64,000 bases of DNA, taken from sequence record MZ311864.1, one strand, 5' to 3'. This DNA is from Escherichia phage vB_EcoM_LNA4. A program made the position numbers and the translations under genes. Below, one piece after another: positions 2,756 through 50,121 of the stretch (the stretch's first letter is position 1; the number at the start of each line of letters is the position of its first letter). Under the pieces are notes generated by a model, which saw nothing but the letters and a program-made list of their open reading frames with translations, made no database searches and was not told where the DNA came from.

Positions 2756-4249
2756 GTGGCTGCTCAATATGGATTAAACGACTACGGCTTTGCGATCCCA
2801 TCCCTTGATGATCTAATCGCAGATACAAAGCAGTCACTAATCCGAACTTTCGGTGAGAACTTCAACACACAGTCAAACACTATTGTTGATAAGCTTACCA
2901 CAATTTTGAATGAAAGGGAGTACCAGTTAATCCTTCTGGCTGCGGCTGTGTATTCTGCACAGACCCTTGCAGGTGCTGAAGGTATTTACCTGGATGAACT
3001 GCTTGGTCGTCGTGGTATTTATCGTCGTGGGAAAACAAGAGGCTCCGGTACGGTACAGATGGTTGTAAACAACACTGTGCCATACAACATGATCTACAGT
3101 GCTGCAACATATAGCATCGACAGTGGCAACTTCGTACTTAACCAAGACACCCCGGTAGCTGGTAATATCCTTGCACAGCAAATCCTGAACCCGGACTGGG
3201 TGCTTGGTAACTACACCTTCCAGATGATGAACCAGAATGATGGTACAACTAAGACAATGGCCCTGACCCTGAGCAACAAAACGCCTAACAGCGCTCAGAT
3301 GAATGCCTTTATGTCTTCCATCAAAGACTTTATCATCCAGAACACCACGCAGTTAAACGAAGACAGAATCTTCATTGATTCTGCCAACGGTGCTCTGTAT
3401 ATTGGTTATGATGCCAACAAAAAAATGATCGGTCTTAACAGCCGTGTTGATTTTCGTTCCTCCCCAGTTATCGGGCAGAGAACGATCACGATGGATGTTA
3501 TTGCCGCTGAAGCTGGTGAGATCTCTCGTGAAGCAAACACCGTAACAAACATCAGCCCAACCCCAAGTGGCTTTATCAGTATGACGAACATGGCTGCATT
3601 TAACGATGGGTCAGACGTTGAAACCGATACAGACTACAAGGTCCGTGCTGCTAACAGTACAGCCGCTGGCGCTGCTGCTACCCGTCCTGCTGTCATCTCT
3701 GCTGTTCTTAACGTAGAGGGTGTCAGCAAGGTCCGTGTGTTCTCTAACAACACCGGATCAACGGATCAGTATGGTGTGCCTGCATATAAGTTCGAAACTG
3801 TTGTGTATGGTGGTTCAACTGAGGATATCAGTCAAGCGCTTTATAACACAATTGCATTATCCAACGCAACCTATGGTAATGTCTTCTATGATATCACCAC
3901 AGAGGATGATCAGACAGAACGAATTTTCCACAGTAAGGCTCAGGCCCGTGAACTCGCACTTCGCGTTCGTTACAAAGGGAAACTTCTCTCAGTCACAGAG
4001 CAAAACACAATCAAAGATGCTTTGAAGGCAGTTGTTGATCCTTTAAACATCGCAGACACCCTGTACAACATTCAGTTGGTATCTGCGGTAGGTTCTTCAA
4101 TCTCTCCTGGTCGATTCACTCAACTGTTTGTTGATGTAAAGAATGTTGGTCAACCAGACAGTTCCTACACAAACAGCGATGTGGTGGCCGGGATGACACA
4201 AGTCTTCGCACTGGATACAGACGACATCACCTTCCAGCAAATCATCTAA
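2756..4249 (+). CDS. baseplate J-like protein
   Basis: 497-aa ORF with AGGAGG RBS; N-terminal region resembles baseplate J family; sits among tail genes. Confidence 0.5.
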   Translation: MAAQYGLNDYGFAIPSLDDLIADTKQSLIRTFGENFNTQSNTIVDKLTTILNEREYQLILLAAAVYSAQTLAGAEGIYLDELLGRRGIYRRGKTRGSGTVQMVVNNTVPYNMIYSAATYSIDSGNFVLNQDTPVAGNILAQQILNPDWVLGNYTFQMMNQNDGTTKTMALTLSNKTPNSAQMNAFMSSIKDFIIQNTTQLNEDRIFIDSANGALYIGYDANKKMIGLNSRVDFRSSPVIGQRTITMDVIAAEAGEISREANTVTNISPTPSGFISMTNMAAFNDGSDVETDTDYKVRAANSTAAGAAATRPAVISAVLNVEGVSKVRVFSNNTGSTDQYGVPAYKFETVVYGGSTEDISQALYNTIALSNATYGNVFYDITTEDDQTERIFHSKAQARELALRVRYKGKLLSVTEQNTIKDALKAVVDPLNIADTLYNIQLVSAVGSSISPGRFTQLFVDVKNVGQPDSSYTNSDVVAGMTQVFALDTDDITFQQII

Positions 4250-4259
4250 CGAGGTAAGC

Positions 4260-4892
4260 ATGGCAGATTATCTAAAGGATGTCAACCACATCCATACTCT
4301 GCCAGATTTCGTACAGGGTGGTATTGATTACCTCCCTGGCGATTTTCTGAAAGAGAAAGAAAACCTTGTCAAGTTCATGACGGTATATCTCGAAAGACTT
4401 AAAGCAATTGACGAAATGTGGGTCAATCTGTCTGAAGGTAGATTACTGAAGAATGCAACTGGTGTCAACCTCGATGAGATTGGCAAGCAGGTGGGGATTG
4501 AGCGTAACGGTCTTAGCGATATGAACTATCGTGCGATCATCATCATCCTCCTTGCGAGTGCTGCGAAGCACGGTACAAGACCAGAGGTTATTGACACACT
4601 TGACCAACTGTTCGGGACAGGAAATTTCACCACGTATAAGGGTGACAACTACCGTTTCGACATTAACATTTCAAAGACGTGTTTTGAATTGGAGACAGCC
4701 CTCCAGGAAATCCAAGACATGTTGCCTATGCCTACCCACCTGAGACTCACAGAGTCCAGCGGTACGGCTTTTGGTTTCTCAGGCGATAAGTATGCACTTG
4801 GGTTTGGTTCAGTCCACTCAGGTGGTCGTACAGGTGAAGGTGGCCTTGCACACCTGACATATACGTCTGATGAAGAGAATACCTTGATTTAA
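4260..4892 (+). CDS. baseplate/tail protein
   Basis: 210-aa ORF tightly packed after baseplate J-like gene. Confidence 0.45.
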   Translation: MADYLKDVNHIHTLPDFVQGGIDYLPGDFLKEKENLVKFMTVYLERLKAIDEMWVNLSEGRLLKNATGVNLDEIGKQVGIERNGLSDMNYRAIIIILLASAAKHGTRPEVIDTLDQLFGTGNFTTYKGDNYRFDINISKTCFELETALQEIQDMLPMPTHLRLTESSGTAFGFSGDKYALGFGSVHSGGRTGEGGLAHLTYTSDEENTLI

Positions 4893-4903
4893 GGGAGATA
4901 GCA

Positions 4904-6016
4904 ATGGCAGCGCCAACAGTACCTATTGAAATTTGGGCCTATGGGAACATTGTCCTCCCTAATACCCACGAGTTAAACAAATCCCGTCCTATTGATGACC
5001 TTTGGAACAAAGGTTGGGACATGGGTGAAAAACCTTCTTGCGAAGAGTTCAACTATGTGCTAAACATGGTTACGGCATGGGCCAAGTACATCACTGGTGA
5101 ACAGATCCCCGCTCTTGATAGCCGATTCCTACGTGTTACTCAGAACTTGGCTGATGTACCCAACAAGGCCACTGCTCGTACAAACCTCGATGTGTGGAGC
5201 AAGGGAGAGTCCGACACGCGTTATGTGAATGTGTCTGGTGACACCATGACCGGGAACCTTTCTGTTCCTCGTTTAGATTTGCAGGCATCTTCTTCTGACT
5301 TTGCCTACATCACCACAACTAACCCAGCATCTGACTGGACATACTTTGATTTTGTTCTTGGTGATAATCCAGGGACGGCAGGGTCTTCCGGTGTTGATAC
5401 AATGCGTTTCCGCTTCACACCTTCTGGTGGCAGCATCTTTAACATGATGGAGCTGAACGCTATCAGCGCCACTGCTGCCCTGTGTCGTGTAACAGGTAAC
5501 ATCATCGCGAGCGGAAGTATTCAGGGTTCTTCAATGACAGCAACCTCTGCAACTTTCACGAACGGTACAGTAAGCAACACCTGGACGGTAAACACCCTCC
5601 AGTCAACAACAACCCGTGCGACCAACGTTGTGGCTACAAACAACGTATCCACCGGGACACTGAACGTAAGCTCAACAACCACAACTGCTAACCTTGTTGT
5701 CCAGAACAACAGTGCAACGGTTGGTGGTCGTCACGTTGTCCGTGCTGTGAACGGTAACACTGCTGATGGTAACGGTAACGTAACAATCTCCCTGCCTCCG
5801 CAAGGTGTTCAGGATGTTCGTCTGGGTTCAGAGATCTCTACGAACCGTTATTCTCTTGGTGGTGAATCCTTTGTGTATCGTGCGCCTGGGGGATGTGTTG
5901 TGACAGGTTTCAACATCTGGTCAAAATCTGGTAACAACGATGAATTCCGCGATATGTATTCTCGCCCAATCCAGAAGTATATCAACGGCGGTTGGTACAC
6001 AATCGGACAGCTCTAA
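4904..6016 (+). CDS. tail fibre protein
   Basis: 370 aa, Thr/Asn/Val-rich repetitive fibre-like sequence. Confidence 0.5.
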   Translation: MAAPTVPIEIWAYGNIVLPNTHELNKSRPIDDLWNKGWDMGEKPSCEEFNYVLNMVTAWAKYITGEQIPALDSRFLRVTQNLADVPNKATARTNLDVWSKGESDTRYVNVSGDTMTGNLSVPRLDLQASSSDFAYITTTNPASDWTYFDFVLGDNPGTAGSSGVDTMRFRFTPSGGSIFNMMELNAISATAALCRVTGNIIASGSIQGSSMTATSATFTNGTVSNTWTVNTLQSTTTRATNVVATNNVSTGTLNVSSTTTTANLVVQNNSATVGGRHVVRAVNGNTADGNGNVTISLPPQGVQDVRLGSEISTNRYSLGGESFVYRAPGGCVVTGFNIWSKSGNNDEFRDMYSRPIQKYINGGWYTIGQL

Positions 6017-6027
6017 CAGGAGGCTAA

Positions 6028-6543
6028 ATGGTACACCTTAAGAATGTGGAGATCTATACTCCTGAGAAAGTACCTGAAGAACTCGCAACCTACGGGGTGA
6101 TGTTCTTTAGATCTGAGGATGGTCAGGATTTCTACGAGGCCATCAAAGACATGAAAGAAGACACAATGAAGGTCTTATACGCAGATGGTATTGTAACAGG
6201 GTTTTCCCTTGATGCAAGCTCTCTGTATCCACCGGGTGCCTCTCTCGTTGAGGTCCCTCTGGATAAAGTCCCTGCGGATCTTGAACTTGGTCGGAAATAT
6301 CTCTTTGATGCAAAGACTCTCAAATTCAAAGTCAACCCTGACTTCTTGACAAGAGATCTTGACATCCAGAAGCAAAACCTACTGGCGCTGGCGAACGATA
6401 AGATCGCCCAGTATCAGGATAAGGTGGATCTGGAGACCGCTACCAAGGGAGAGGTAACCGCCCTTAAGAACTGGAAAGCCTATAGAATCAAAGTTCGTGA
6501 AGCGACTGACGTGGGTTCTCTACCAAAACAACCACGCGTGTAA
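6028..6543 (+). CDS. tail fibre assembly (chaperone)-like protein
   Basis: 171 aa directly downstream of a fibre gene; resembles Tfa-type chaperones. Confidence 0.45.
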   Translation: MVHLKNVEIYTPEKVPEELATYGVMFFRSEDGQDFYEAIKDMKEDTMKVLYADGIVTGFSLDASSLYPPGASLVEVPLDKVPADLELGRKYLFDAKTLKFKVNPDFLTRDLDIQKQNLLALANDKIAQYQDKVDLETATKGEVTALKNWKAYRIKVREATDVGSLPKQPRV

Positions 6544-6552
6544 GGAGCTACC

Positions 6553-6867
6553 ATGTCCATTGATCTATTTGCTATCCTGAAAGCTGTCTGGGGCGTTGTC
6601 ACGTTTGTCCTGATTGGTGTCCTTAGAATCACATACTCCGATTACAAAAAAACGCAAGAACGCCTTGATGAACTTGATAAAGATATCATAAGGATTAAGG
6701 CAGAGATGGTCACAAAAGAGAAACTGGATGAGATTCTGGATAAGAAACTCAAGACTGTTCGTGATGACGTTTCAGAATTGCGTAAGGACATCAAAGAAGA
6801 CGTGGGTGATCTGAGAGCAGACCTGAGCAATCAGTTTAAAATGCTCATGGAGCGTCAACTTAGATGA
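6553..6867 (+). CDS. membrane-anchored coiled-coil protein
   Basis: N-terminal hydrophobic helix then charged heptad-like region. Confidence 0.45.
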   Translation: MSIDLFAILKAVWGVVTFVLIGVLRITYSDYKKTQERLDELDKDIIRIKAEMVTKEKLDEILDKKLKTVRDDVSELRKDIKEDVGDLRADLSNQFKMLMERQLR

Positions 6868-37354: not shown

Positions 37355-37536
37355 TTCCAGTTCCCATTGAAAAGCCGCAGCACCAAGAGGTTCATGAAGT
37401 ACAGGGGCCAAAGCAGGCCCATGAACACACCACCAAGAAGATCCATAGTGTCTAATCTCCAGAATTGCTGCGCTCTTTTCATGAAGATATAAAACCCTAC
37501 AAATGCGAACAGAAGATAGGTAATCCCAACCATCAC
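37351..37536 (-). CDS. small membrane protein
   Basis: 61 aa, two hydrophobic helices. Confidence 0.45.
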   Translation of the reverse strand: MMVGITYLLFAFVGFYIFMKRAQQFWRLDTMDLLGGVFMGLLWPLYFMNLLVLRLFNGNWK

Positions 37537-38024
37537 TTTTTCTCCGGAAGGATATAAACTGTTACATCACAATCCCAGAAAACAGATTTGATCATCGCTT
37601 CAATGACGTTCCAGTCACCACCTGCAAGACCAGCACCGATTTTCGGGAAGCCGATTTTGTAGTCAGCCATAGAGCCGTCTGTAAAGCTCTGTAAGGCCTT
37701 CTTCATCTGATCCAACGAATCATACAGGGCATTGTAATCGAGGTCACGTAGGCCCTGTTTACGGCGATTATAACCATATTGCGAATACAGATTAAATCCT
37801 GCGAGAGATCCGTCCTTCATGAAGGCCACAGTGAAGGTCCCAAGTTTGGCTTTATCACCTTTCTCGGTCTTCAGATCCGCAGCGTACATTTTAGGGAACG
37901 CTTCTTTGATCAGTGGAGCTATACCGCTACCCATTGTGCAATAACAATTGCAGCCATGCGCAAAAACATTAACCTCACCAGATTTCACAGCCTCAATTAG
38001 GTCGCCTACTTTATACTTAAGCAT
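37533..38024 (-). CDS. macro-domain protein (ADP-ribose binding/processing)
   Basis: 163 aa; AHGCNCYCTMGSGIA and GFPKIGAGLAGGDW resemble macro-domain Gly-rich loops. Confidence 0.6.
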   Translation of the reverse strand: MLKYKVGDLIEAVKSGEVNVFAHGCNCYCTMGSGIAPLIKEAFPKMYAADLKTEKGDKAKLGTFTVAFMKDGSLAGFNLYSQYGYNRRKQGLRDLDYNALYDSLDQMKKALQSFTDGSMADYKIGFPKIGAGLAGGDWNVIEAMIKSVFWDCDVTVYILPEKK

Positions 38025-38527
38025 CAGTCCTCCACTATAATATCATGAATCGTTTTTACGTATGCTTGATAACATTCACTCGCTTCCTCAGCGGAGTCGA
38101 ATGTTCCAAGGTGGATCTTACTATACACAGCATGGTATCTTAACCTAGTCCACCTTTTGTCTACGAATACACCACGGAATCCTGTTTGGTTCTTCTTTCC
38201 TCTGCTGTAATTGTAGACGTTTACAAACTTCTGGACATCCCTGAGGTTAGTAATACGATTGTTATCTTTTTGTCTGTCCTTGTGGTCAATAAAATAAGTG
38301 GGCCACACGCCGTAATAAAAAGCCCAGGCCACTCTGTGTGCCAAGAAGTAAAAACCTTTACCTTCAATCTTAACACCAAGCCTTACGTAACCGTCTTTTC
38401 TTTTTGTGCCTGCAACCTTTCCAAAATGACGACGAGCGAGAGGATTGATACACGTAAACAAACCTGTCTCAGGGTCATATGAGAAGGAAGATTTAAGCGC
38501 CTGTAATGCCTCTTCACTCTCCTTCAT
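38024..38527 (-). CDS. HNH homing endonuclease with AP2-like DNA-binding domain
   Basis: AHRVAW...IDHKDRQKDNNRITNLR HNH core and GFRGV...RW AP2-like region. Confidence 0.6.
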   Translation of the reverse strand: MKESEEALQALKSSFSYDPETGLFTCINPLARRHFGKVAGTKRKDGYVRLGVKIEGKGFYFLAHRVAWAFYYGVWPTYFIDHKDRQKDNNRITNLRDVQKFVNVYNYSRGKKNQTGFRGVFVDKRWTRLRYHAVYSKIHLGTFDSAEEASECYQAYVKTIHDIIVED

Positions 38528-39763: not shown

Positions 39764-40067
39764 TAGAGATCTTCTGACCAGCCAAGAATTTCGGATTTGT
39801 CAGACGAGATTCAAAAGACTGACGGACCTTGTGTGCCAGCTTAGAGCAGTAATCCACATCGGACAGTGCTTCTTGGTTCGCTTTAACACGGATACGCTTC
39901 ACACTCGGAACGATGGTCAGACCACCAAAGCCGTCAACGTAATAGAACTCGACCTCATAACCGTCAGTGGTCAGTTCGTTGAAGATTGGGAATGTCTGTT
40001 GCAGTGCCTCTTTATGTGCAAGAGACATCAGACGTTGTTGGTCGTTCAAAGTTTCAGTGATTTGCAT
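39726..40067 (-). CDS. hypothetical protein
   Basis: 113 aa from ATG after GAGGA RBS. Confidence 0.45.
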   Translation of the reverse strand: MQITETLNDQQRLMSLAHKEALQQTFPIFNELTTDGYEVEFYYVDGFGGLTIVPSVKRIRVKANQEALSDVDYCSKLAHKVRQSFESRLTNPKFLAGQKISNGFKNKKGQFRV

Positions 40068-40125
40068 TGAGTTTATCCTCGTTTTGTTTGGTATGCACAA
40101 AGATTAACAGCCTCCGAAGAGGCTG

Positions 40126-40815
40126 TCAAATGTTTTTCGCAGGTTTTTTAGATGATCCTCGGTTGTAGGGTATTCCTCCCCACTCCATGTTCTCAATTAT
40201 ATATCCATTGAAGCATGTCTCATCCCCACACTCGTGCTGTGTTTTTGTCAGGAATGTTATGTAATTTCGATCTTCTGTTACCATGTGTACACTGTACATT
40301 TCCCTGAACCTGTCACATCGCAAGATAGTTCCGGGGATGCTTACCTTATCCCTTGAAGGTTTGTAATAATTAGCCCGATCCTGGATAGACAGGTACGCAC
40401 CAAGACAGGCGGCCTTCAGAGAGCAAGAGACCTTCAGATTATCAAAATCACCCCCGCTGATATACCACAGCAGGAGGGGTGGAGGACAATCCTCAAACGC
40501 AACACCCGCCCATTCACCGAAGGGGAATATTCCCCTTTCGATAAAATTGAGGTGCCTGCGCTGTGTGTCTGTCTCCACATCAACATAACTTCTTTTCTGC
40601 TTCAGGTCTATGCTTCTGTCGTAACTCTCCTCTCCCAACAAAGGTAAAGACCTTTTAAAGTAGTCTTCAGCAGCAAATTCAGGACTGTAGCTCTCCGAAC
40701 CAAGGGAGATAACAGAGGCATAAGCCCATTCATCTCCACTGTTGATGCAGAGTTTAAGCTCATAAAACCCAAGCTCATGTTGTTGACGATACAGAATCCA
40801 GCGATCTACAGACAC
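40126..40815 (-). CDS. hypothetical protein
   Basis: 229-aa ORF. Confidence 0.45.
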   Translation of the reverse strand: MSVDRWILYRQQHELGFYELKLCINSGDEWAYASVISLGSESYSPEFAAEDYFKRSLPLLGEESYDRSIDLKQKRSYVDVETDTQRRHLNFIERGIFPFGEWAGVAFEDCPPPLLLWYISGGDFDNLKVSCSLKAACLGAYLSIQDRANYYKPSRDKVSIPGTILRCDRFREMYSVHMVTEDRNYITFLTKTQHECGDETCFNGYIIENMEWGGIPYNRGSSKKPAKNI

Positions 40816-40824
40816 AAAGCCCCC

Positions 40825-42033
40825 TTAGTTCACGATTGCATCAACACCATCAGAGAAGTTCTTACGGTATTCTGTGATGATCTCCATGACAACCGGGTAT
40901 TTCTGGAGCAGTTTAGCAGGTAAACGCTCACGGTTCCCGGACATTAAGATCGCTTTACCGAAGGAGTTCTCCTGGATGAACGACATGAACACAGAACTAA
41001 CGAAGTCGCGGTTGGATGCCGTATCATGCTGACCGAAGTTATCATACATATACTTCAGGAAGTTCGCAGCGAACGCGATTACCTCATCGTCGGTATACTC
41101 TTTGTTCTGGATCGCCTTGCGTAACCAGATAGACCCCTGAGAGCCTAGAGTCCACAGGATATCCGAAGAGTCAGCACCCGTATGTTTGGTGAGTTTGCCA
41201 CTCATAACATCTTGGATAGAGACCATTTTGGAGATACGGGTATGGTATTCCCACAGTTCGTTAGCCAGAGGCTTACCGATACTGCCCTGCAACGATGCCA
41301 GAGCCAGACGAGCAGACAACAGGCCAGCGTCATAATCGTACAGAATATCACTTGCCGTTACCCAGGTGCGTGGTGTGGCGTATGAAGGGGAGTTAATCTC
41401 CAGCATCTCTTCATAGTTCTCAATCTTACCTGGGTTTGCGCTCACAAAACCAACAACCGATGGATGGACATCGTTGTGCATGGCGTAGTCCTGCAACCAG
41501 ACAGTCGTGTCGTAATCCAGTTCGACGAGGATCATACGGTTAGCTAGCGGAGCTTCCAGCATACTTACCGCAGTACCATCACCAGGGCGGTTGCCTGCAC
41601 CTGCAAACACCGCACCTGCCGGGAATTTGTATGTACCGATCTTGTGATCAAGCATGATCTGATAGGCAACTTTCTGGAGATATGGTTCCGCGTGTAGCAA
41701 TTCATCCAGGAATACAATACCCTTCCAGTTCGGGTCATCAGGCCAGAAGCTTGGAATAGCATACACAGTGCGTGTAATACCATTGTCGTCGGTTACGGGG
41801 ATCTGCACCCCAACAACGTCAGACGGTTCTTTATCCGCAAGACGGAAGTCGATCAGGTTATCGTCGCGGTCACCAAACATCATGTTGGCTACCTGCTTCA
41901 TTGCCTGGCTCTTGCCAAGACCTGCACCGCCAAACATCATCAGGGCGCGTCCACGACGCTGACAGAACTTCATCAGATCAGGCACATCCCGAAGCGTGAT
42001 ACGGTTCTCGTCAAAAATGTTACGACTCGACAT
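40825..42033 (-). CDS. AAA+ ATPase (MoxR/AAA_5-like)
   Basis: Walker A MFGGAGLGKSQ and Walker B VFLDELL; start at ATG after AAGGAG. Confidence 0.6.
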   Translation of the reverse strand: MSSRNIFDENRITLRDVPDLMKFCQRRGRALMMFGGAGLGKSQAMKQVANMMFGDRDDNLIDFRLADKEPSDVVGVQIPVTDDNGITRTVYAIPSFWPDDPNWKGIVFLDELLHAEPYLQKVAYQIMLDHKIGTYKFPAGAVFAGAGNRPGDGTAVSMLEAPLANRMILVELDYDTTVWLQDYAMHNDVHPSVVGFVSANPGKIENYEEMLEINSPSYATPRTWVTASDILYDYDAGLLSARLALASLQGSIGKPLANELWEYHTRISKMVSIQDVMSGKLTKHTGADSSDILWTLGSQGSIWLRKAIQNKEYTDDEVIAFAANFLKYMYDNFGQHDTASNRDFVSSVFMSFIQENSFGKAILMSGNRERLPAKLLQKYPVVMEIITEYRKNFSDGVDAIVN

Positions 42034-42262
42034 TAGTTTGTCTCCTTTGTTCAAGATAGTTTTCGATTATCCCCTCTACATCTCCGGGGTCGATATCATT
42101 GTATAGGGTATGGATTCTCTCTGCAAGGTCTTTCGGCAATAACTTATCTGTTTGATGCACCCTACCAGCACCAAAAACCACATACCATGCACGACGACTC
42201 AGGCGGTGCCGTTGACGAGGAACGTCCCTGTTAAAATCTAAAGGCTTCACTTCTCCACCCAT
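42020..42262 (-). CDS. hypothetical protein
   Basis: 80-aa ORF. Confidence 0.4.
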   Translation of the reverse strand: MGGEVKPLDFNRDVPRQRHRLSRRAWYVVFGAGRVHQTDKLLPKDLAERIHTLYNDIDPGDVEGIIENYLEQRRQTNVES

Positions 42263-42618
42263 ACTCGATTCTCATCACACCAGTTGTAAAGATCTTTCAT
42301 GATGTCGTTGAACTCCCGCATCGGTGTATAATGCCGGATCGGATCTGCATCATGCCCCTCTGCCTCACATTCCGCAATGGAAGCCTGCCACTCAAGATAT
42401 GTAGGGACATCCCGGAAATAGATTATAATATCAACAAGGTCTGCATCACACTGAACGCTGTCGTAGCTTGCCTTGTTCGGGAATTTAAATTCCAGACGAC
42501 GAGCAATCTCTTTCGCAAGCTCATGAACTGTTTTATCAGTCCAATCTTCAGGGCCACACTCGCCGTTTCGCTTTCTCCACACATCATCAATGCGGAGGGT
42601 TTGTTTCCACTCAGCCAT
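42247..42618 (-). CDS. hypothetical protein
   Basis: 123-aa ORF. Confidence 0.45.
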   Translation of the reverse strand: MAEWKQTLRIDDVWRKRNGECGPEDWTDKTVHELAKEIARRLEFKFPNKASYDSVQCDADLVDIIIYFRDVPTYLEWQASIAECEAEGHDADPIRHYTPMREFNDIMKDLYNWCDENRVWVEK

Positions 42619-43099
42619 TGGTTATTTTCCTCAATTCAAATTCGTCACCATACCCGATCATATGCCCTTTGGCAGTGATCACCTTTTCTCCGAACACGCT
42701 GCCAGTGCATTTACCAATGAAAACTTCCGGCATATCTTCCTCAGACAGGAGAATATCTACCTTGAACTTGCCTTGATAATGTCTAGCATTGTAATGTGGC
42801 CCTTTATCATCTGTCTTGTGCCAGCATTTGCCGTTCCAGCGATATTTATTGTGCTTGTACCATGTATATGATACCCAGTTATCCTGCGCTATATGGTCCA
42901 CCTGAACAGTAATCAGTCGTCCTGTGCTGCGAAGTAGATCGTCATATTGCTTTTCGTATAACTTCGCACGATTTTTCATATCGTTGTAATACTGTTGATA
43001 GCGATCCGCCCTGTTGACCATAACCTTGAGGATACTCTCGATTGGTGTGCCTTTCTCAAGATGTTCTTCATAAAGCTGTTTGCTTGATTTGATATTCAT
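42611..43099 (-). CDS. hypothetical protein
   Basis: 162-aa ORF. Confidence 0.45.
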   Translation of the reverse strand: MNIKSSKQLYEEHLEKGTPIESILKVMVNRADRYQQYYNDMKNRAKLYEKQYDDLLRSTGRLITVQVDHIAQDNWVSYTWYKHNKYRWNGKCWHKTDDKGPHYNARHYQGKFKVDILLSEEDMPEVFIGKCTGSVFGEKVITAKGHMIGYGDEFELRKITNG

Positions 43100-43308
43100 T
43101 TAAGCTCCTTAATGGATTCCAGGTCAAGGTAGTCATCACCACCCACCACTTTCCCGTCAGTTTTGCGATACTTTACGACTTTTCCGGTCTCTGAATGCTG
43201 GTAAGACATCCAGTAACGAGGCGTTTCGCGAAGTTTCTCAGTCCACGCCCAGCCGAGGCGGGGTTTTTTGACTGTACCTTTGTGGGTGTAACCTTGATTT
43301 CTGGACAT
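43096..43308 (-). CDS. hypothetical protein
   Basis: 70-aa ORF; overlaps 43173..43529 in another frame. Confidence 0.35.
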   Translation of the reverse strand: MSRNQGYTHKGTVKKPRLGWAWTEKLRETPRYWMSYQHSETGKVVKYRKTDGKVVGGDDYLDLESIKELK

Positions 43309-43529
43309 TCTTTGCTCCTGTATAGAGTCACTTTGTAAAGATTCTGATCGTAAATCAAAAAAGGCCTTGACACCGGACCGACAGACCTGTATCTACGATT
43401 CACCTGAATGTAGCCGCGCTCCTCCAACTTGAGAACGAGCTTACTTACTTTCCATGAAGGAATTCCCAGCAGGAACCCCATCTGTTTCTGAGTATACTTG
43501 TTTGTGCGGAGCAGTGTCAATAGATTCAT
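43173..43529 (-). CDS. winged-helix-like DNA-binding protein (3' end uncertain)
   Basis: N-terminal HTH-like segment; C-terminal part overlaps neighbouring ORF. Confidence 0.35.
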   Translation of the reverse strand: MNLLTLLRTNKYTQKQMGFLLGIPSWKVSKLVLKLEERGYIQVNRRYRSVGPVSRPFLIYDQNLYKVTLYRSKECPEIKVTPTKVQSKNPASAGRGLRNFAKRLVTGCLTSIQRPEKS

Positions 43530-44035
43530 AATTGCGACAGCATGTTGATTGCTTCGTGATGTTCTTTCATCTTTGTCAGACGAAGATACATGTCATGGTA
43601 CTTACGAATACGAAGCAAGTCTTTATCGCTAAGTCCTTTCAGACGACGAACATCAGAGTTGTGTCGCAGGTCTGCGAGCTTAACACGGATTGCATCGTAG
43701 TTTCTTGCAATACCCTGGAAATACTCCTCCGGTGTCTGATTTGGTGTTTTCGTCAAAAGAACCACAGCATCTTTAACACGATTAGAGAAGCCCAACAGCA
43801 CTAGGTCAGCAGCCGTCACATCGGTATCTTCCACCACATCGTGAAGAGCCGCGATAGCCATAAGCTGAAAATCATCGCTCTTCAGGTAGTGCATCACCTT
43901 TAGCGGGTGGAGGATGTAGGGGTTACCACCCTTATCTTTCTGATTCAGGTGTCCTTCTGCTGCAATCTTGATAGCCAGGGCAAGTTCTTGCGCCGGGGTT
44001 AAAACTGGAATCGTGGAATTGTAAGTTCGTACCAT
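43526..44035 (-). CDS. HD-domain (p)ppGpp hydrolase-like protein (RelA/SpoT-type)
   Basis: GHLNQKDKGGNPYILHPLKV and AALHDVVEDT HD motifs. Confidence 0.65.
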   Translation of the reverse strand: MVRTYNSTIPVLTPAQELALAIKIAAEGHLNQKDKGGNPYILHPLKVMHYLKSDDFQLMAIAALHDVVEDTDVTAADLVLLGFSNRVKDAVVLLTKTPNQTPEEYFQGIARNYDAIRVKLADLRHNSDVRRLKGLSDKDLLRIRKYHDMYLRLTKMKEHHEAINMLSQL

Positions 44036-45027
44036 CTTTGTTGCTCCATCATGTTAAAAGGTTTGATCTTGAGTGTATCAAAACCATCAATGTTGTCAAG
44101 CCAGAATTCATCTTTATATCCAGCCATTTCCATCATCATTAACTCTTCCGGGCTGGGTGTCTCCCCTGCCATCATGTTTCTGAGTCTTTCATCCCAGCGG
44201 AAAGTGAATAATGTCTCATTTTTATTGCAAATTAATAGTGCTTCACGGGCATTTTTAATCTTAACACTACGATCACGTAGATGAAACACACTGTGACCAA
44301 TGTGATTACACTGGACATCAAAGTTATCCCTGTCTCTGAAGTCACAAAACACCAGGAGATCACCGATAGACAAGGATATACCGAGAATATCAATATCGTT
44401 TTTAGACCTCTGTGTGAATTTCGATTCAAGACCGTACCTGCGGAACTCCGCATTGATGAAAAGATCTGGTTCACAACGGCCCATTTGTCTGATAAGGGGC
44501 TTCAACAAGCCGAGGAACTCTCTTGTACGGCTTGAAAATCTCCAGGCCGAACCCTTTGTAAGGGCATCACCATCCCCATGACCACGGATAATGGCTGAAA
44601 CATTTCCCCGCGATACCTCTTCCCGCTCGAAAGGACTTGAGGTAGAGGCTCTATCTCTGATATCTACCTCAAGACGGGCTAAAAACCGCCTATCAAGGCT
44701 CTCTCGTCGATAATCTCCCCAGTCACACCCCCAGAACCAAGAGAATGGGCCATTCCTTGTGTCTACTTTCTCAAGCAAGCACCTAAGTATTTCAGCAAAG
44801 GGGTTATCTTGCATCACCGTGGGGTTAAGCCTTGAAAGAAAGTCATCACTGTCCATTCTTGGCGTATCCCAGATACCCAGCATTGCCTTTTGACGGTACT
44901 GTTGTTCTCTTTGCCAATGTTCAATCAGGTCGCGAGTTGTCTGGTCATCTTTTAACATGCTCCAGTCTATATCAGCAGTCACCTTTGGGACGGCTACCTG
45001 TCGAACATCAATGTTGAATTTATTCAT
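43999..45027 (-). CDS. hypothetical protein (first gene of minus-strand operon)
   Basis: 342 aa from internal ATG; sequence upstream of that ATG is promoter-like. Confidence 0.5.
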   Translation of the reverse strand: MNKFNIDVRQVAVPKVTADIDWSMLKDDQTTRDLIEHWQREQQYRQKAMLGIWDTPRMDSDDFLSRLNPTVMQDNPFAEILRCLLEKVDTRNGPFSWFWGCDWGDYRRESLDRRFLARLEVDIRDRASTSSPFEREEVSRGNVSAIIRGHGDGDALTKGSAWRFSSRTREFLGLLKPLIRQMGRCEPDLFINAEFRRYGLESKFTQRSKNDIDILGISLSIGDLLVFCDFRDRDNFDVQCNHIGHSVFHLRDRSVKIKNAREALLICNKNETLFTFRWDERLRNMMAGETPSPEELMMMEMAGYKDEFWLDNIDGFDTLKIKPFNMMEQQRWYELTIPRFQF

Positions 45028-45090
45028 GTTTATCTCTCTCTCAAACAAATGTACACAAAGCATACACTGTAAAAAATTTGAAATCAAGTG

Positions 45091-45119
45091 TTGACAGTGT
45101 GGAAGCAATCCAGGATAAT
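45091..45119 (+). promoter_or_regulatory. sigma70-like promoter
   Basis: TTGACA-17 bp-GATAAT upstream of AAGGAG and the 45158 start; divergent from minus operon. Confidence 0.6.
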
Positions 45120-45157
45120 TCCCCCAACAAGAACGGGAACAACCCAAGGAGTAGAAA

Positions 45158-46063
45158 ATGTTTGATGTGAAAAAGAAATTTACCGCCAGTGAGATCAAAA
45201 GTCTAGAAGAACGTTATCGTAAAAAGGTTGAGCGCACAAAGAAACGTGGCCTTGAGTTCAGCCTGACGCTTGATGACTGGTTCATGATGGGTGAGAAGCT
45301 CTTAGGTATTGGCAAATGTGACTATACCAACATGGACTTTAGTATGCGCTCTGTGCATGGTGAGAAAGACCCTCTTTATCCAACCGTTGAGCGTATCAAT
45401 GATAAGAAAGGTTATGTCCGTGGTAACGTTTGTGTTGTCCTGCAACGCGCTAACGAACTGAAAGATTGCTTGGTTGACAAGAAGACGGCAATCACTATAA
45501 TTGAACCACTTGATCGTGAGATCGTTCAGGCAATGATGCTGAACATGTCAAAAGAGCATATGGAACAACTGAAACTAAAATATATTCCACAAGAGGAGAA
45601 AGAAATGCCAGTAGATACTTCTGTAGTTGTAGATAAAGTAGAGATTTCTGAAGAGCGCACCGCGTCTTCCGCAATGGAACTTGCTGAACAACATTTCCAC
45701 AAACAACCACCTACGGCAGAAGAAACCACTGCACCAGTGGAAGAAAAGCAGAAGCTTCCAGACGATGTTGCTGTGGCACTGGCCTACGCCAACTACTGCA
45801 AAACATTCTCTGATGCGGGTATGAACGTTTCTGTGACCTATGCACAATTTAAGGCGAAGTATATTCGCAACACCTGCTCTCTGACCGGAGAGAAGTTGTC
45901 TGGAGAGCCAAAGGCGATCCTTATCATGGATCTGAAAGTCGGTTTTGCTAAAGACAACTTCATTATTGTGTCGAAGAAAATGGAAACGGCGCTTACTCAA
46001 CTGATCATTCAGACAGAAATGAGCCTCCCTAAAATCACTGCGATGCTCAACAAGGTGGTGTAA
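45158..46063 (+). CDS. hypothetical protein with internally duplicated domain
   Basis: 301 aa; two related segments ending in G(Y/F)xxxN(V/F)x(V/I)V. Confidence 0.5.
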   Translation: MFDVKKKFTASEIKSLEERYRKKVERTKKRGLEFSLTLDDWFMMGEKLLGIGKCDYTNMDFSMRSVHGEKDPLYPTVERINDKKGYVRGNVCVVLQRANELKDCLVDKKTAITIIEPLDREIVQAMMLNMSKEHMEQLKLKYIPQEEKEMPVDTSVVVDKVEISEERTASSAMELAEQHFHKQPPTAEETTAPVEEKQKLPDDVAVALAYANYCKTFSDAGMNVSVTYAQFKAKYIRNTCSLTGEKLSGEPKAILIMDLKVGFAKDNFIIVSKKMETALTQLIIQTEMSLPKITAMLNKVV

Positions 46064-46323
46064 TGTACGAAGATATCCTGGGCCGACCCGCGTCGGCTCC
46101 TGAACAAAAGATGATGGACAGGGGATTCGTTCCCCCGTTCAAAGTTGGTGACCGGGTTTGTCTTGCTAATGCTCAGAATGTGGTATCAACCATTACTGCA
46201 ACGGTTTTGTTTGCTGTACCACCCAACCCGGTGCAGCCACAGCCAGCATTAACCTGGGGATTCCGGCTTGAAGGTTGGACAGATTTTTTACCAGGTGAAG
46301 CAATAAAACCATTTGCATCCTAG
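46063..46323 (+). CDS. hypothetical protein
   Basis: 86-aa ORF, start overlaps previous stop. Confidence 0.4.
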   Translation: MYEDILGRPASAPEQKMMDRGFVPPFKVGDRVCLANAQNVVSTITATVLFAVPPNPVQPQPALTWGFRLEGWTDFLPGEAIKPFAS

Positions 46324-46340
46324 CACACAACGTGTATAAT
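46313..46340 (+). promoter_or_regulatory. sigma70-like promoter
   Basis: TTGCAT-16 bp-TATAAT. Confidence 0.5.
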
Positions 46341-46381
46341 CAGGTCATCATTAGATGGCCTTTTTTTATTTGGAGAGAAGA

Positions 46382-47818
46382 ATGTATAAAGACGAATCGG
46401 AGATGATCTCCAAGCTACAAGATTCAGCCCTGAAGCTGATACAGTCAGCACGTATTGCATTACTGCAACATCGTCCATTTTACGGAACTTTGCTGAGTTC
46501 TTTGCCGATCATCGCAGACTGGAGATGGCTACCAACCGCTGCAACAGATCACCGACATCTGTACTATAACCCTGAGTTTATTATGGGGATGCCTGCCGAA
46601 CGCAAAAAGAAAGTCTTTGAGCGTATTGACAATCACCCCTCCATGACACAGCAGGAAAAAGATGACTACAAAGAGTATGTCAATGTTTTCTATCGAAAGA
46701 AGACACCAAAAGAGGTGGTAGTCATTCTGATGCACGAAGTTCGCCACATCACCAACGATCACATGGCCCGTGGGAAGAGCTTCAACTCAAAAATGTACAA
46801 CATTGCAGCGGATCAGTACATCAACACAGATTTAGTGGCTGTAGACCTTGGTCCAAGAAACACCTCATTGAAGTTCTTCCCGTTGGGAGCACAGACCAAG
46901 TTTGACAAAAACAAAGAATTTGGGTTCCTTGCGTACTGTTATTGTGATTTCTCATTCCAGAACAAGACAGCGGAAGAGATTTACGAGATGATTTACAATG
47001 GCAAGACAGTTGTTGGTCATCCTATGGGTGCTCATATTGGGGATTATGACCCCGAACGAGACATCCTGGGGTACGTAGACCCACACCCAAGCCTCGGTCC
47101 AATAGCTAAAGATGAGAATCTTGCATGGTCAGCGGGGCTGATTGACGCTGCAATGAGTGCAGCAGGCGGTGAAGGCCCGAAAGAGGCACGGGAATTGGTG
47201 GCAAGATCTCGTAAACCACACATTGATTACATGAAAATCATTAAACAGCGTATGGTCTCTCGTGTAAGATCTCACCTTTCTTACCGTAAACCAGCACGTC
47301 GATCAGGGTCTGTGACCCAAGTTCTGCGTAATTATGGTGCAATCACCCATAAGCAGAGCGTGATTTTGCCGGGAAGGAAGCAATCTGAGACAATTGACAT
47401 CGTGGTATGCTTCGATGTGTCTGGTTCTATCAGCCAGAAAACCATGACTCGCATCTTTAACGAGATTATTGGTCTGTGTACCCTGTATAAATGCTTCCGG
47501 GTAACACTTTTCTGCTGGTCAACCGAAGTTGGCGAGGTAAAAGTATACACCCAGGACAATATCAAGGAGATGCTGGACTACCATGTTACCTCCACAGGCG
47601 GTACACGGGCTGGTGTTGCGTTTGAATACATCGAAAAGAATATCCCTGATGCAAAAGATGTGATAATCTTTACAGACGGGTATATTGAAGATCTCAGTTC
47701 CCGCAAAAAGGACTGGGGTAAGATGTGGGATACACTATGGGTATTGTGTGGTCGTAACAAATCCAAGTACGACCCACCATTCGGGAGGGCAGTTGACTTA
47801 GATGAACACGCAAAATAA
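46382..47818 (+). CDS. metallopeptidase-like (HExxH) + von Willebrand A domain protein (DUF2201-like)
   Basis: LMHEVRHITNDH zinc-peptidase-like motif and C-terminal DIVVCFDVSGSIS MIDAS-like motif; start at ATG after GGAGAG. Confidence 0.55.
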   Translation: MYKDESEMISKLQDSALKLIQSARIALLQHRPFYGTLLSSLPIIADWRWLPTAATDHRHLYYNPEFIMGMPAERKKKVFERIDNHPSMTQQEKDDYKEYVNVFYRKKTPKEVVVILMHEVRHITNDHMARGKSFNSKMYNIAADQYINTDLVAVDLGPRNTSLKFFPLGAQTKFDKNKEFGFLAYCYCDFSFQNKTAEEIYEMIYNGKTVVGHPMGAHIGDYDPERDILGYVDPHPSLGPIAKDENLAWSAGLIDAAMSAAGGEGPKEARELVARSRKPHIDYMKIIKQRMVSRVRSHLSYRKPARRSGSVTQVLRNYGAITHKQSVILPGRKQSETIDIVVCFDVSGSISQKTMTRIFNEIIGLCTLYKCFRVTLFCWSTEVGEVKVYTQDNIKEMLDYHVTSTGGTRAGVAFEYIEKNIPDAKDVIIFTDGYIEDLSSRKKDWGKMWDTLWVLCGRNKSKYDPPFGRAVDLDEHAK

Positions 47819-48188
47819 GCTAATTGTTACAGGACTCACTGTAGATGTTGACTTTATGTACAGTGGGTCAATGGTCAGAATCGGTTTTCATGAGGGAAGA
47901 GACTACATTGAGTATCTGATCTCCTCTAATCGCCGTGCATTGTCCATTAAGAGATTCAAAAACGCCAGATGGGGAACCATAATTGAACCAGACTTCACTG
48001 TAAATCCTTTGGATATCAGTGACGAAGAGGATTTTATGGTGAGTATTCTTCCGGGAATGAATCATTTCGAGCGTTCTTTGTACAAAATGGCAGGTATTGT
48101 CGCGAAAATGTGGCATAACGATGCTGATGAGAACTATGCTCGGAACTACGTCATAGAGTATCTTAAGGATTACCTGGTGGCACCATGA
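47802..48188 (+). CDS. hypothetical protein
   Basis: 128-aa ORF. Confidence 0.45.
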   Translation: MNTQNKLIVTGLTVDVDFMYSGSMVRIGFHEGRDYIEYLISSNRRALSIKRFKNARWGTIIEPDFTVNPLDISDEEDFMVSILPGMNHFERSLYKMAGIVAKMWHNDADENYARNYVIEYLKDYLVAP

Positions 48189-48481
48189 GGATAGATAAGT
48201 CTTTCAGTGTGTTGTGCTCATATGGAATCCTGTCAAACCCGAAGGTCTCACCAACAGATCTTCGGGTCTATCTGTACATCAAGTTCAGGTGGCAGTTTTT
48301 CCAGAGTAAGGGGGCTGAGTTCGTAGAGTCTGTAAGCACCATAGCAGAGGCCGTCAGTATGAGTCCCAGAAGTGTGCAGAGGTCATTGAAGAATCTTGAG
48401 TCTCTTGGATACCTGGAGGTGGTTGAGAGGTCAGGGAAAACAAGCCTCTATATTCCGCTTGACGAACTGGTTAAGAAGTAG
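48185..48481 (+). CDS. winged-helix DNA-binding protein
   Basis: STIAEAVSMSPRSVQRSLKNLESLGYLEVVERSGK HTH-like segment. Confidence 0.5.
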   Translation: MRIDKSFSVLCSYGILSNPKVSPTDLRVYLYIKFRWQFFQSKGAEFVESVSTIAEAVSMSPRSVQRSLKNLESLGYLEVVERSGKTSLYIPLDELVKK

Positions 48482-48716
48482 CCAACCCCCGACAAAAACG
48501 TAGGGGGAGGGGTGACAAAAACGACCTACGATATAATAAAGAACTAAATAATAAAGAAACAAACAAATAAAATAAGATCTTTATAAAAAAGACTTGATCT
48601 AAAGATTTGTTAGTGTATAGTTGGTTTCAAGAGGAAGTGATGGAGCAACAGCGAAACACTTCAGATGTGTGTGGAAGTTCAATGTGCTCGGAGGCATGGG
48701 CGACAGGAGCTTCTAA

Positions 48717-49145: not shown

Positions 49146-49786
49146 TGTCATGGGCCTTTCTGATTTACTTAATTGATGTACTCACCACTGACGGTACTTA
49201 CAGCGGTTGGGGTTTCCTGATGTTCATCTTCGCCATTGCATACGGGGTCATGTATGCATTCCAGAAGTGCTATGAAGAAACTGACGGCAAGGTACGTTAT
49301 GGATTCTTCTTAGGTCAAAACTTGGTTCTTAACCAAGACTGGAACCACTTGAAGGCTGGGGAAACCATTGTTGTGACTAATATTGACAATGATGGTACGT
49401 TAAAGGTTCGATATCCTAACGGGGAGTCCTCTAATTGGCTGCGTTTTTCTACAGTAGAGCAGATCTCCGCCCAGCGACCTAACCCTGATGCGCCGCAAGT
49501 GCCTGTTCGTGACCTGACAAAAGGACCACGTAAGGTGGCAGTTGCAGGGCTGATCGTTTGCTTCCTCGGTATTCTGTATGCTAACTTTATGCCTCAGAAA
49601 GAGACTGCGTACAAGATGCTGGCTGCATATGTAGGTCAGAATGTGGTGGAGTCACCTCGTACTCAGCAACTGGCAGACAGTACGATCAAGTATCTTGATG
49701 CTCAGATCAAGAAGTACACAGACGAGCTTGATGCCACCGCTAAAGCAGAGCAGGCTGAGAAGGCCAAAGAGAAGGAGTCTAAATGA
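49145..49786 (+). CDS. membrane protein
   Basis: 213 aa, hydrophobic helices, charged C-terminus. Confidence 0.5.
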   Translation: MSWAFLIYLIDVLTTDGTYSGWGFLMFIFAIAYGVMYAFQKCYEETDGKVRYGFFLGQNLVLNQDWNHLKAGETIVVTNIDNDGTLKVRYPNGESSNWLRFSTVEQISAQRPNPDAPQVPVRDLTKGPRKVAVAGLIVCFLGILYANFMPQKETAYKMLAAYVGQNVVESPRTQQLADSTIKYLDAQIKKYTDELDATAKAEQAEKAKEKESK

Positions 49787-50121
49787 CAGGAATCGCTGAA
49801 CGCGTACTCCAGTCCTCAATCCGGGCGCAAGCCCGGACTGTTGATTCAGTCTTCAAGAACCTCGTAGAGGAAGTTGGGGAACTATCGCGAGCACTAAACC
49901 GCCCCTGGCGTTGTGATGAACCTGCAATTGGTGAAATTGCTGATGTTCTTAACTGTGTGATTGACTTGGCATTCTTGCTTGAGTTACAGGATTGTATCAA
50001 TCCTCGTGAGGATGATATGCCAGCAATCGTAGAAACAGTTCAACGCCGCCTTGAGCACTACGTTGATAAGAAGTGTGGCAAGTGGGATCGTTGTGAGAAT
50101 GCAGATCCGGGGGCGCTGTGA
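49783..50121 (+). CDS. MazG-like nucleotide pyrophosphohydrolase
   Basis: EEVGELSRAL and GEIADVLNCVIDLA motifs. Confidence 0.55.
   Translation: MTGIAERVLQSSIRAQARTVDSVFKNLVEEVGELSRALNRPWRCDEPAIGEIADVLNCVIDLAFLLELQDCINPREDDMPAIVETVQRRLEHYVDKKCGKWDRCENADPGAL

Follow-up and report, generated by a model that had tools for sequence, protein, structure and literature searches.

The 64,000-nucleotide stretch of Escherichia phage vB_EcoM_LNA4 (MZ311864.1) that we analysed, hereafter the window, encodes on opposite strands an AAA+ ATPase of the MoxR class (40825-42033, minus strand) and a protein that joins a putative metallopeptidase domain to a von Willebrand factor A (vWA) domain (46382-47818, plus strand). 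We think it rather probable that these genes are the Seunavirus copies of an ancient and widespread two-gene MoxR ATPase/peptidase-vWA module, split here by an inversion, and that their products would act together as an adaptor-targeted, ATP-dependent protease or maturase. Neither the type of module nor the annotation of its genes is new: GenBank records of the EC152/GAP31 relatives already name a "MoxR ATPase" and a "VWA-like domain-containing protein", and we describe no new kind of system. An earlier note on this DNA, written from its letters, had proposed that the two genes form a split MoxR-vWA partner module, possibly of chaperone or conflict type.

Enterobacter phage EC152 and Cronobacter phage GAP31 match positions 40000-48500 of the window at 94% identity (96-99% of the length covered); for Escherichia phage 4MG and Salmonella phage PVP-SE1 the figure is 79-86%. 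EC152 is classified in the genus Seunavirus of the Vequintavirinae and, on this similarity, the window belongs to the same genus of rV5-like phages.

A predicted MoxR-class ATPase

The minus-strand gene encodes 402 residues behind a ribosome-binding site, AAGGAG, that lies 8 nucleotides 5' of the ATG at 42033. The AAA+ module takes up residues 1-235, and the rest of the protein (236-402) is a helical C-terminal region particular to the family. The module carries a Walker A motif, GGAGLGKS (35-42; G35, G38, G40, K41, S42), and a Walker B motif, D110-E111. Across 45 homologues, G35/G38/G40/K41, D110-E111, N148 of sensor 1, R166 for the arginine-finger region and P221-R222 of sensor 2 are invariant or at least 90% conserved, and the AAA+ ATPase that the earlier note placed at these coordinates is confirmed.

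The same note had called the protein MoxR-like from its Walker motifs, which are insufficient for that call. The protein had no significant match in Pfam (nothing at E ≤ 0.01), NCBIfam or PADLOC; its best family model was bpMoxR, at E 0.098 and 12.2 bits for a cut-off of 27. PHROG 1297, named 'ATPase', matched it at 6e-107. Searching PDB sequences with single sequences gave no match for either the ATPase or the peptidase-vWA protein, and the 58 close relatives retrieved by homology all lack precomputed Pfam domains. The class assignment therefore needed transitive and structural evidence, and on that evidence it stood. Seven homologues at E 1e-40 to 1e-29 bear AAA_3 (PF07726) and AAA_5 (PF07728), so that the AAA_5 profile suggested by the earlier note fails on the ATPase directly and succeeds on its remote homologues. 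When the 45-homologue profile was compared with the PDB, it matched the AAA domains of midasin at 5.6e-26, far better than Clp and p97. In the AlphaFold model (mean predicted local distance difference test, pLDDT, 85.6) a beta-hairpin (76-92) is inserted after helix 2, between strands 60-64 and 104-110, and short strands precede the sensor-1 strand (140-147). Foldseek searches with this model placed CbbQ2 and NorQ first, NorQ both by itself and in complex with the vWA domain of NorD (E ~2e-8, target-normalised template modelling scores 0.60-0.66). As modelled, the fold is closest to that of solved MoxR ATPases, including the helix-2 insert and the hairpin before sensor 1. Altogether, the domains of the homologues, the conserved residues, the midasin profile match and the structural matches to NorQ and CbbQ2 argue that the protein is a divergent member of the MoxR/AAA_5 class (CbbQ/NorQ/midasin-like).

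A putative metallopeptidase fused to a vWA domain

The plus-strand gene, with GGAGA 5' of its ATG at 46382, encodes 478 residues in which Pfam detects DUF2201_N (about 1-320; 2.3e-24, 86.9 bits, cut-off 23.2), assigned as a putative zincin-like metallopeptidase, and, C-terminal of it, the vWA domain DUF2201 (about 335-478; 1.1e-12, 48.7 bits, cut-off 26.4). VWA_CoxE also scores above its curated cut-off (9.3e-8). The protein is the presumed adaptor or effector partner of the ATPase. The peptidase motif reads HEVRH (H118-E119-x-x-H122) and the metal ion-dependent adhesion site (MIDAS) of the vWA domain is complete, with DVSGS (D345-x-S347-G-S349), T408 and T431-D432. Among 55 homologues, down to about 25% identity, H118, E119, H122, R130, D144, D345, S347, G348, S349 and T431-D432 are invariant, and H127 and T408 nearly so (at least 90%). 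The combination of HExxH N-domain and vWA MIDAS read by the earlier note is therefore complete and conserved. Since the glutamate of HExxH, E119, is itself invariant, the motif argues for catalysis beyond mere metal binding.

Relatives of 733-794 residues proved to be intein-bearing peptidase-vWA proteins. In one (P0225), the insert starts directly after HEVLH and includes, besides a LAGLIDADG domain (47.7 bits), a weak match to Hint; in another (P0256), an intein-like insert lies directly before an invariant C-D-Y, with a cysteine at its start and His-Asn followed by the next Cys at its end. Inteins typically occupy the most constrained sites of important proteins. Because those of the relatives sit at HExxH and CDY, these would be the most constrained sites of the family, and the positions fit an active site built from the two motifs. 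One PHROG-derived name for this protein looks wrong: phrog_1314, 'HNH endonuclease', is in fact the DUF2201 peptidase-vWA protein.

The two genes are linked across phages and bacteria

A scan of viral contigs gave at least 596 loci, 80 of which were fetched and their open reading frames (ORFs) searched with profiles of both families; together with earlier loci this made 85. In 65 of the 85, the vWA gene directly follows an ATPase gene of the same orientation (median gap 91 nucleotides between ORF bounds); in 13 more the ATPase gene is 0.4-3.7 kb upstream, again on the same strand, so that 78 are co-directional. In five loci it is upstream on the opposite strand, and all five are Vequintavirinae-like (Vequintavirus/Seunavirus-like). 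No ATPase gene was found in the remaining two of the 85, one of which has just 204 nucleotides of upstream sequence. One viral contig (L031) carries tandem peptidase-vWA paralogues (1672-2931 and 3551-4861), with no ATPase gene in the available 1.6 kb upstream. Many of the 75 other viral loci have further flanking genes in common, so they do not all count as separate lineages.

Linkage extends to named phages of independent lineages and to bacterial chromosomes. In the N4-like phage LIT1, a gp24-like ATPase gene, one ORF and a gp25-like vWA gene co-directional with the first are followed by helicase and DNA polymerase genes, and the order ATPase then vWA on one strand recurs in Thermus phage phiFa, Klebsiella jumbo phage KP13-7 and Agrobacterium jumbo phage Atu_ph07 (homology judged by profile scores for LIT1, phiFa and KP13-7 and by tblastn for Atu_ph07). 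At each of five distant homologues whose surroundings were inspected, the DUF2201_N/DUF2201 gene is preceded by an AAA gene, either directly or with one small gene between them; one of the five is on the chromosome of Thiocapsa sp. KS1, which carries the operon in a non-prophage context. A bacterial sample of 80 loci, a single clade retrieved with a narrower alignment (Chromatiales and related bacteria: Chromatiaceae, Sedimenticolaceae, Thiodiazotropha, Sulfuricella), includes five without upstream sequence; in the 75 that are testable, the pair is adjacent in 73 and co-directional in the other two, hence co-directional in all. These counts, with most pairs adjacent, support the partner module that the earlier note had proposed. 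In the sulfur-oxidising Gammaproteobacteria (L095-L174, L006), a BepA-like M48 peptidase with tetratricopeptide repeats follows the operon in 47 loci and SoxY/SoxZ in about 38, synteny that may be uninformative because these genomes are closely related.

The family is large: 534 phage records hold homologues of the vWA protein and 784 hold homologues of the ATPase, and the peptidase-vWA proteins form 12,574 clusters (50% identity) at E ≤ 1e-30. A third conserved gene did not emerge: families of flanking ORFs recur within the marine viral set or within the Chromatiales set, the window having none of them, and antisense shadow ORFs of the ATPase and vWA genes probably account for several of the top clusters. 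Neither was a consistent metalloenzyme neighbour found across the loci. Genes of replication and nucleotide metabolism surround the pair in diverse phages (helicase, DNA polymerase, RNase H, ThyA/Thy1, dUTPase, 5'-3' exonuclease, RNA ligase, glutaredoxin), and no examined locus has the pair within a morphogenesis module.

A probable inversion separated the genes in the Vequintavirus/Seunavirus branch

In the window, 4,348 nucleotides separate the two genes. Gene orientation switches, and transcription diverges, at an intergenic region (45028-45157). The earlier note had the pair flanking this region; they do lie on its opposite arms, not directly beside it, the ATPase gene being the seventh or eighth of the minus arm, about 3.0 kb away, and the vWA gene the third of the plus arm, about 1.2 kb away. 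The rV5 genome has the same divergent layout, and its record names a MoxR ATPase. Pectobacterium phage phiTE (Certrevirus, same subfamily) differs: its plus strand carries, in this order, gp055 with an HD domain, two small genes, gp058 for the MoxR ATPase, the HNH gene gp059 and gp060 for the peptidase-vWA protein. The ATPase is 39% identical to phiTE_058, and the window HD protein 54% identical to part of phiTE_055. This comparison supports a single inversion of the HD-to-ATPase block, which would turn the phiTE order into that of the window and move the point of divergence. The inverted block would correspond to 40825-45027 on the minus strand, with the ATPase gene at one end, the HD-phosphohydrolase gene (43526-44035) and a gene for 342 residues (43999-45027) at the other, and the proposed breakpoint beside the vWA arm in the divergent intergenic region. 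Only two block genes are detectably shared with phiTE, so gene gain and loss must also have occurred. Because all outgroups are co-directional, the inversion is taken as the derived state, older than the split between Vequintavirus and Seunavirus.

The HD phosphohydrolase of the window (minus strand) appears shortened: it has 169 residues, phiTE_055 (5448-6689 of locus L090) has 413, and it covers just positions 139-303 of the 374 in the PHROG 990 profile. Its gene overlaps the upstream 342-residue gene by 37 nucleotides.

Both genes are kept in every Vequintavirinae-like locus examined, and their catalytic and MIDAS residues are all intact. They have diverged in parallel, the ATPase and vWA proteins being respectively 50% and 47% identical to those of rV5, 39% and 37% to those of phiTE, and 30% and 27% to those of KP13-7. 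Both are under strong purifying selection: the ratio of nonsynonymous to synonymous substitution rates (dN/dS) is 0.019 against EC152 and 0.040 against PVP-SE1 for the ATPase gene, and 0.033 and 0.069, respectively, for the vWA gene. Retention, parallel divergence, intact residues and low dN/dS argue against decay or loss of function, and are no proof of continued interaction. What the window contributes is a comparative argument that the genes, once separated, are still partners.

A model for the pair and the alternatives

If the pair works like NorQ-NorD, CbbQ-CbbO and midasin, its ATPase would assemble into a hexameric ring on which the vWA protein docks. In CbbQ-CbbO and in midasin, the MIDAS site holds an acidic residue of the client, and the MIDAS of the window protein may likewise capture an acidic residue of its own client protein. 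ATP hydrolysis would remodel this client and the tethered zinc peptidase would cut it, again on the analogy with these machines. The simplest model is then a two-subunit, ATP-driven, MIDAS-targeted protease or maturase. The client is somewhat more likely to be intracellular, a phage or host protein that the pair handles ahead of late morphogenesis, than to be a virion protein, because the neighbours belong to replication and nucleotide metabolism, because N4 gp24 and gp25 are middle genes, and because the operon also occurs in bacteria in a non-prophage context. N4 gp24 ('unknown') and gp25 ('vWFA domain') are indeed two of the 14 core genes of N4-like phages, and middle transcripts (PMC4193335). 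A bolder version, which we put forward tentatively as a possibility, is that the pair belongs to an uncharacterised class of two-subunit ATP-dependent protease, a MoxR ring with a MIDAS-targeted zincin, that would be core and middle-expressed in many virulent phages (N4-like, rV5-like, jumbo and marine) and present in some bacteria. Its target would be a particular host protein or one associated with replication, as opposed to parts of the virion, and the Vequintavirus/Seunavirus inversion would show that the partnership outlives the loss of co-transcription.

Several results weigh against the protease or maturase model. The zincin fold of the N-domain was not seen in two structure searches, whose top matches were all to the vWA domain, and around HExxH the N-domain resembles M48 (E 0.1) and MJ1213 (E 0.025) only weakly. 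No fusion of the two families, the Rosetta-stone sign of interaction, occurred among 333 fetched proteins, none of which matched both profiles. Genomic position is weak evidence of timing, and promoter-like sites in the region are not enriched (14, for 13.6 expected from shuffles); the timing claim is therefore not based on them. A literature search found no experimental function reported for any member of the module. The published proposal for a homologous phage pair points elsewhere: Iyer et al. 2021 (PMC7824862) describe the MoxR AAA+ and metallopeptidase-vWA 'chaperone-cochaperone' pair of group 2.2 jumbo phages (Atu_ph07 ASV44729.1 and ASV44728.2) and propose, by analogy with an archaeal two-tailed virus, that it serves virion assembly and peptidolytic processing.

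In that proposal the pair would act as a chaperone and protease, helping components of the tail or head to fold or assemble and trimming structural proteins. It draws on the Acidianus two-tailed virus, whose MoxR/vWA proteins are needed for tail development (PMC7824862), and finds an echo in roseophage RPP1, which encodes some virion proteins near its gp24/gp25 homologues (PMC4193335). The loci themselves speak against it, since none has the pair in a morphogenesis module and their neighbours are those of replication and nucleotide metabolism listed above, thymidylate synthases among them; N4 gp24 and gp25 are middle genes absent from the table of virion proteins (PMC4193335), and the same operon sits on bacterial chromosomes without phage context. 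We consider a role in virion assembly unlikely on balance, while taking it seriously. The nucleotide-metabolism neighbours, among them the glutaredoxin of Atu_ph07, could also be turned to a different account, in which the pair is a chaperone for metal or cofactor insertion (of NorQD/CoxDE/CobST type) that matures a metalloenzyme of phage or host, such as ribonucleotide reductase, HExxH handling metal without peptide cleavage. NorQ-NorD are the closest solved structures and the vWA domain passes the VWA_CoxE cut-off, which would suit such a role; but the catalytic-base glutamate of HExxH is invariant, N-terminal domains of the CobT, NorD or CoxE kind were undetected, and no metalloenzyme is a consistent neighbour across the loci. 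On these grounds metal insertion appears quite improbable.

Two further explanations would apply to the pair as it now stands in the window, and we give little credence to either. The inversion may have uncoupled the proteins in this lineage, leaving each with an independent role or a different partner, as the opposite strands, the gap of 4.3 kb and the separate transcription units might suggest, and terminators flank the ATPase gene even in phiTE. Against such uncoupling stand the retention of both genes in every Vequintavirinae-like locus examined, their parallel divergence, the intact residues and the low dN/dS, and no other vWA gene was identified at positions 38-50 kb, the part of the window searched. 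The conflict module raised by the earlier note, a counter-defence or superinfection-exclusion device related to MoxR-vWA ternary systems, has the merit that bacterial conflict systems employ MoxR-vWA cores (PMC7159879) and that the genes lie in an early region beside an Srd/anti-sigma-like gene and a macro-domain gene. The option was not borne out: there is no PADLOC match, bpMoxR reaches 12.2 bits where 27 are required, no VMAP, beta-propeller or FtsH component was found and no third component is common to other loci; core status in N4-like phages and the 12,574 clusters fit a housekeeping gene better than an arms-race gene. We regard it as very improbable.

Transcription signals and neighbouring genes

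Cumulative GC skew over the whole window declines steadily between about 10 kb and about 45 kb and climbs thereafter, with its minimum near 44-46 kb; the turn tracks the switch of gene orientation at 45.0-45.2 kb. A consensus scan placed in the divergent intergenic region a sigma70-like site, TTGACA-17-GATAAT (45091-45119, plus strand), where the PVP-SE1 record annotates a promoter; the site is only suggestive of one. Directly 5' of the vWA start codon, at 46312-46371 on the plus strand, a second promoter-like site, TTTGCA-17-TATAAT (46312-46340), is followed by a weak hairpin and T-run (46342-46371), and this element may serve the vWA gene as a promoter of its own or act as an attenuator. The sequence at 45474-45501, TTGACA-16-TATAAT, which lies within the gene that opens the plus arm, is a perfect sigma70 consensus. 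A search of all 64 kb for tRNA genes found none.

That first gene (45158-46063, plus strand) is named 'anti-sigma factor' in rV5 and EC152; its product has no Pfam match, and its PHROG matches are to HNH endonuclease, 'decoy of host sigma70', Srd anti-sigma factor and endonuclease VII. Other PHROG-derived names in the region look wrong: phrog_10489 and phrog_6790, 'tail protein', fall on two small genes (46063-46323 and 47802-48188) in a non-structural region, and phrog_10920, 'thymidylate kinase', on the 342-residue gene (43999-45027), has no Pfam support. Dubious names of this origin are carried by the RefSeq records of PVP-SE1, phiTE, 4MG and others. On the minus strand, 37533-38024 encodes a macro-domain protein (PF01661, 25.9 bits, cut-off 22) that could act on ADP-ribose modifications, its PVP-SE1 counterpart being named 'phosphatase', and 38024-38527 an HNH_3 endonuclease with a weak AP2 domain. 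On the plus strand, 48185-48481 encodes a winged-helix HTH_36 protein and 49783-50121 a MazG-like pyrophosphatase (21.8 bits, slightly under the cut-off of 22).

Significance and comparison with known systems

The module is among the most widely conserved gene pairs of virulent phages without a reported experimental function, and finding its client would close a gap both in phage biology and in the mechanism of MoxR-vWA machines. Tractable models are indicated in the rV5-like phage EdH4 and in N4, each already used with CRISPRi-ART, in work that makes no mention of these genes.

Among cellular machines, NorQ-NorD and CbbQ-CbbO resemble the pair most in structure, and the vWA finger of NorD inserts into the pore of NorQ (PMC13036017). 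NorD and CbbO lack the HExxH peptidase domain, their clients are metalloenzymes or Rubisco, sequence identity is about 13-18%, and the phage ATPase has an extra helical C-terminal region of about 165 residues. Midasin (Rea1/Mdn1) is, unlike the phage pair, a single giant eukaryotic polypeptide with six AAA domains and no peptidase domain, and serves ribosome assembly. The CobS/CobT and BchI/BchD chelatases were rejected on domain content, the vWA subunit bearing no N-terminal domain of CobT or BchD type. MoxR-vWA ternary conflict systems (Kaur et al. 2020, PMC7159879) have the MoxR and vWA core in common with the window pair, and some fuse a peptidase to the vWA protein; they too were rejected on domain content, the pair differing from them in its missing third component (VMAP, beta-propeller or FtsH), its bpMoxR score under threshold and its lack of a PADLOC match.

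Phages offer closer parallels. In Bacillus phage 0305phi8-36, a deletion that took out a MoxR-like and a vWA-like gene, perhaps counterparts of the window pair, among others, caused a growth defect (PMC3357382). The N4 genes were compared through LIT1, whose gp24-like protein matches the ATPase profile at 7e-51 and whose gp25-like protein matches the peptidase-vWA profile at 2.4e-64, the ATPase again coming first; identity to the window proteins is just 22-25%, and the N4-like genes lie in a middle/replication operon with one small ORF between them. The Atu_ph07 pair is homologous to that of the window in both proteins (tblastn 5e-22 and 8e-23) and has the same domain architecture. Its virion role is a proposal, and its genes are adjacent and co-directional, whereas those of the window are divergent and 4.3 kb apart.

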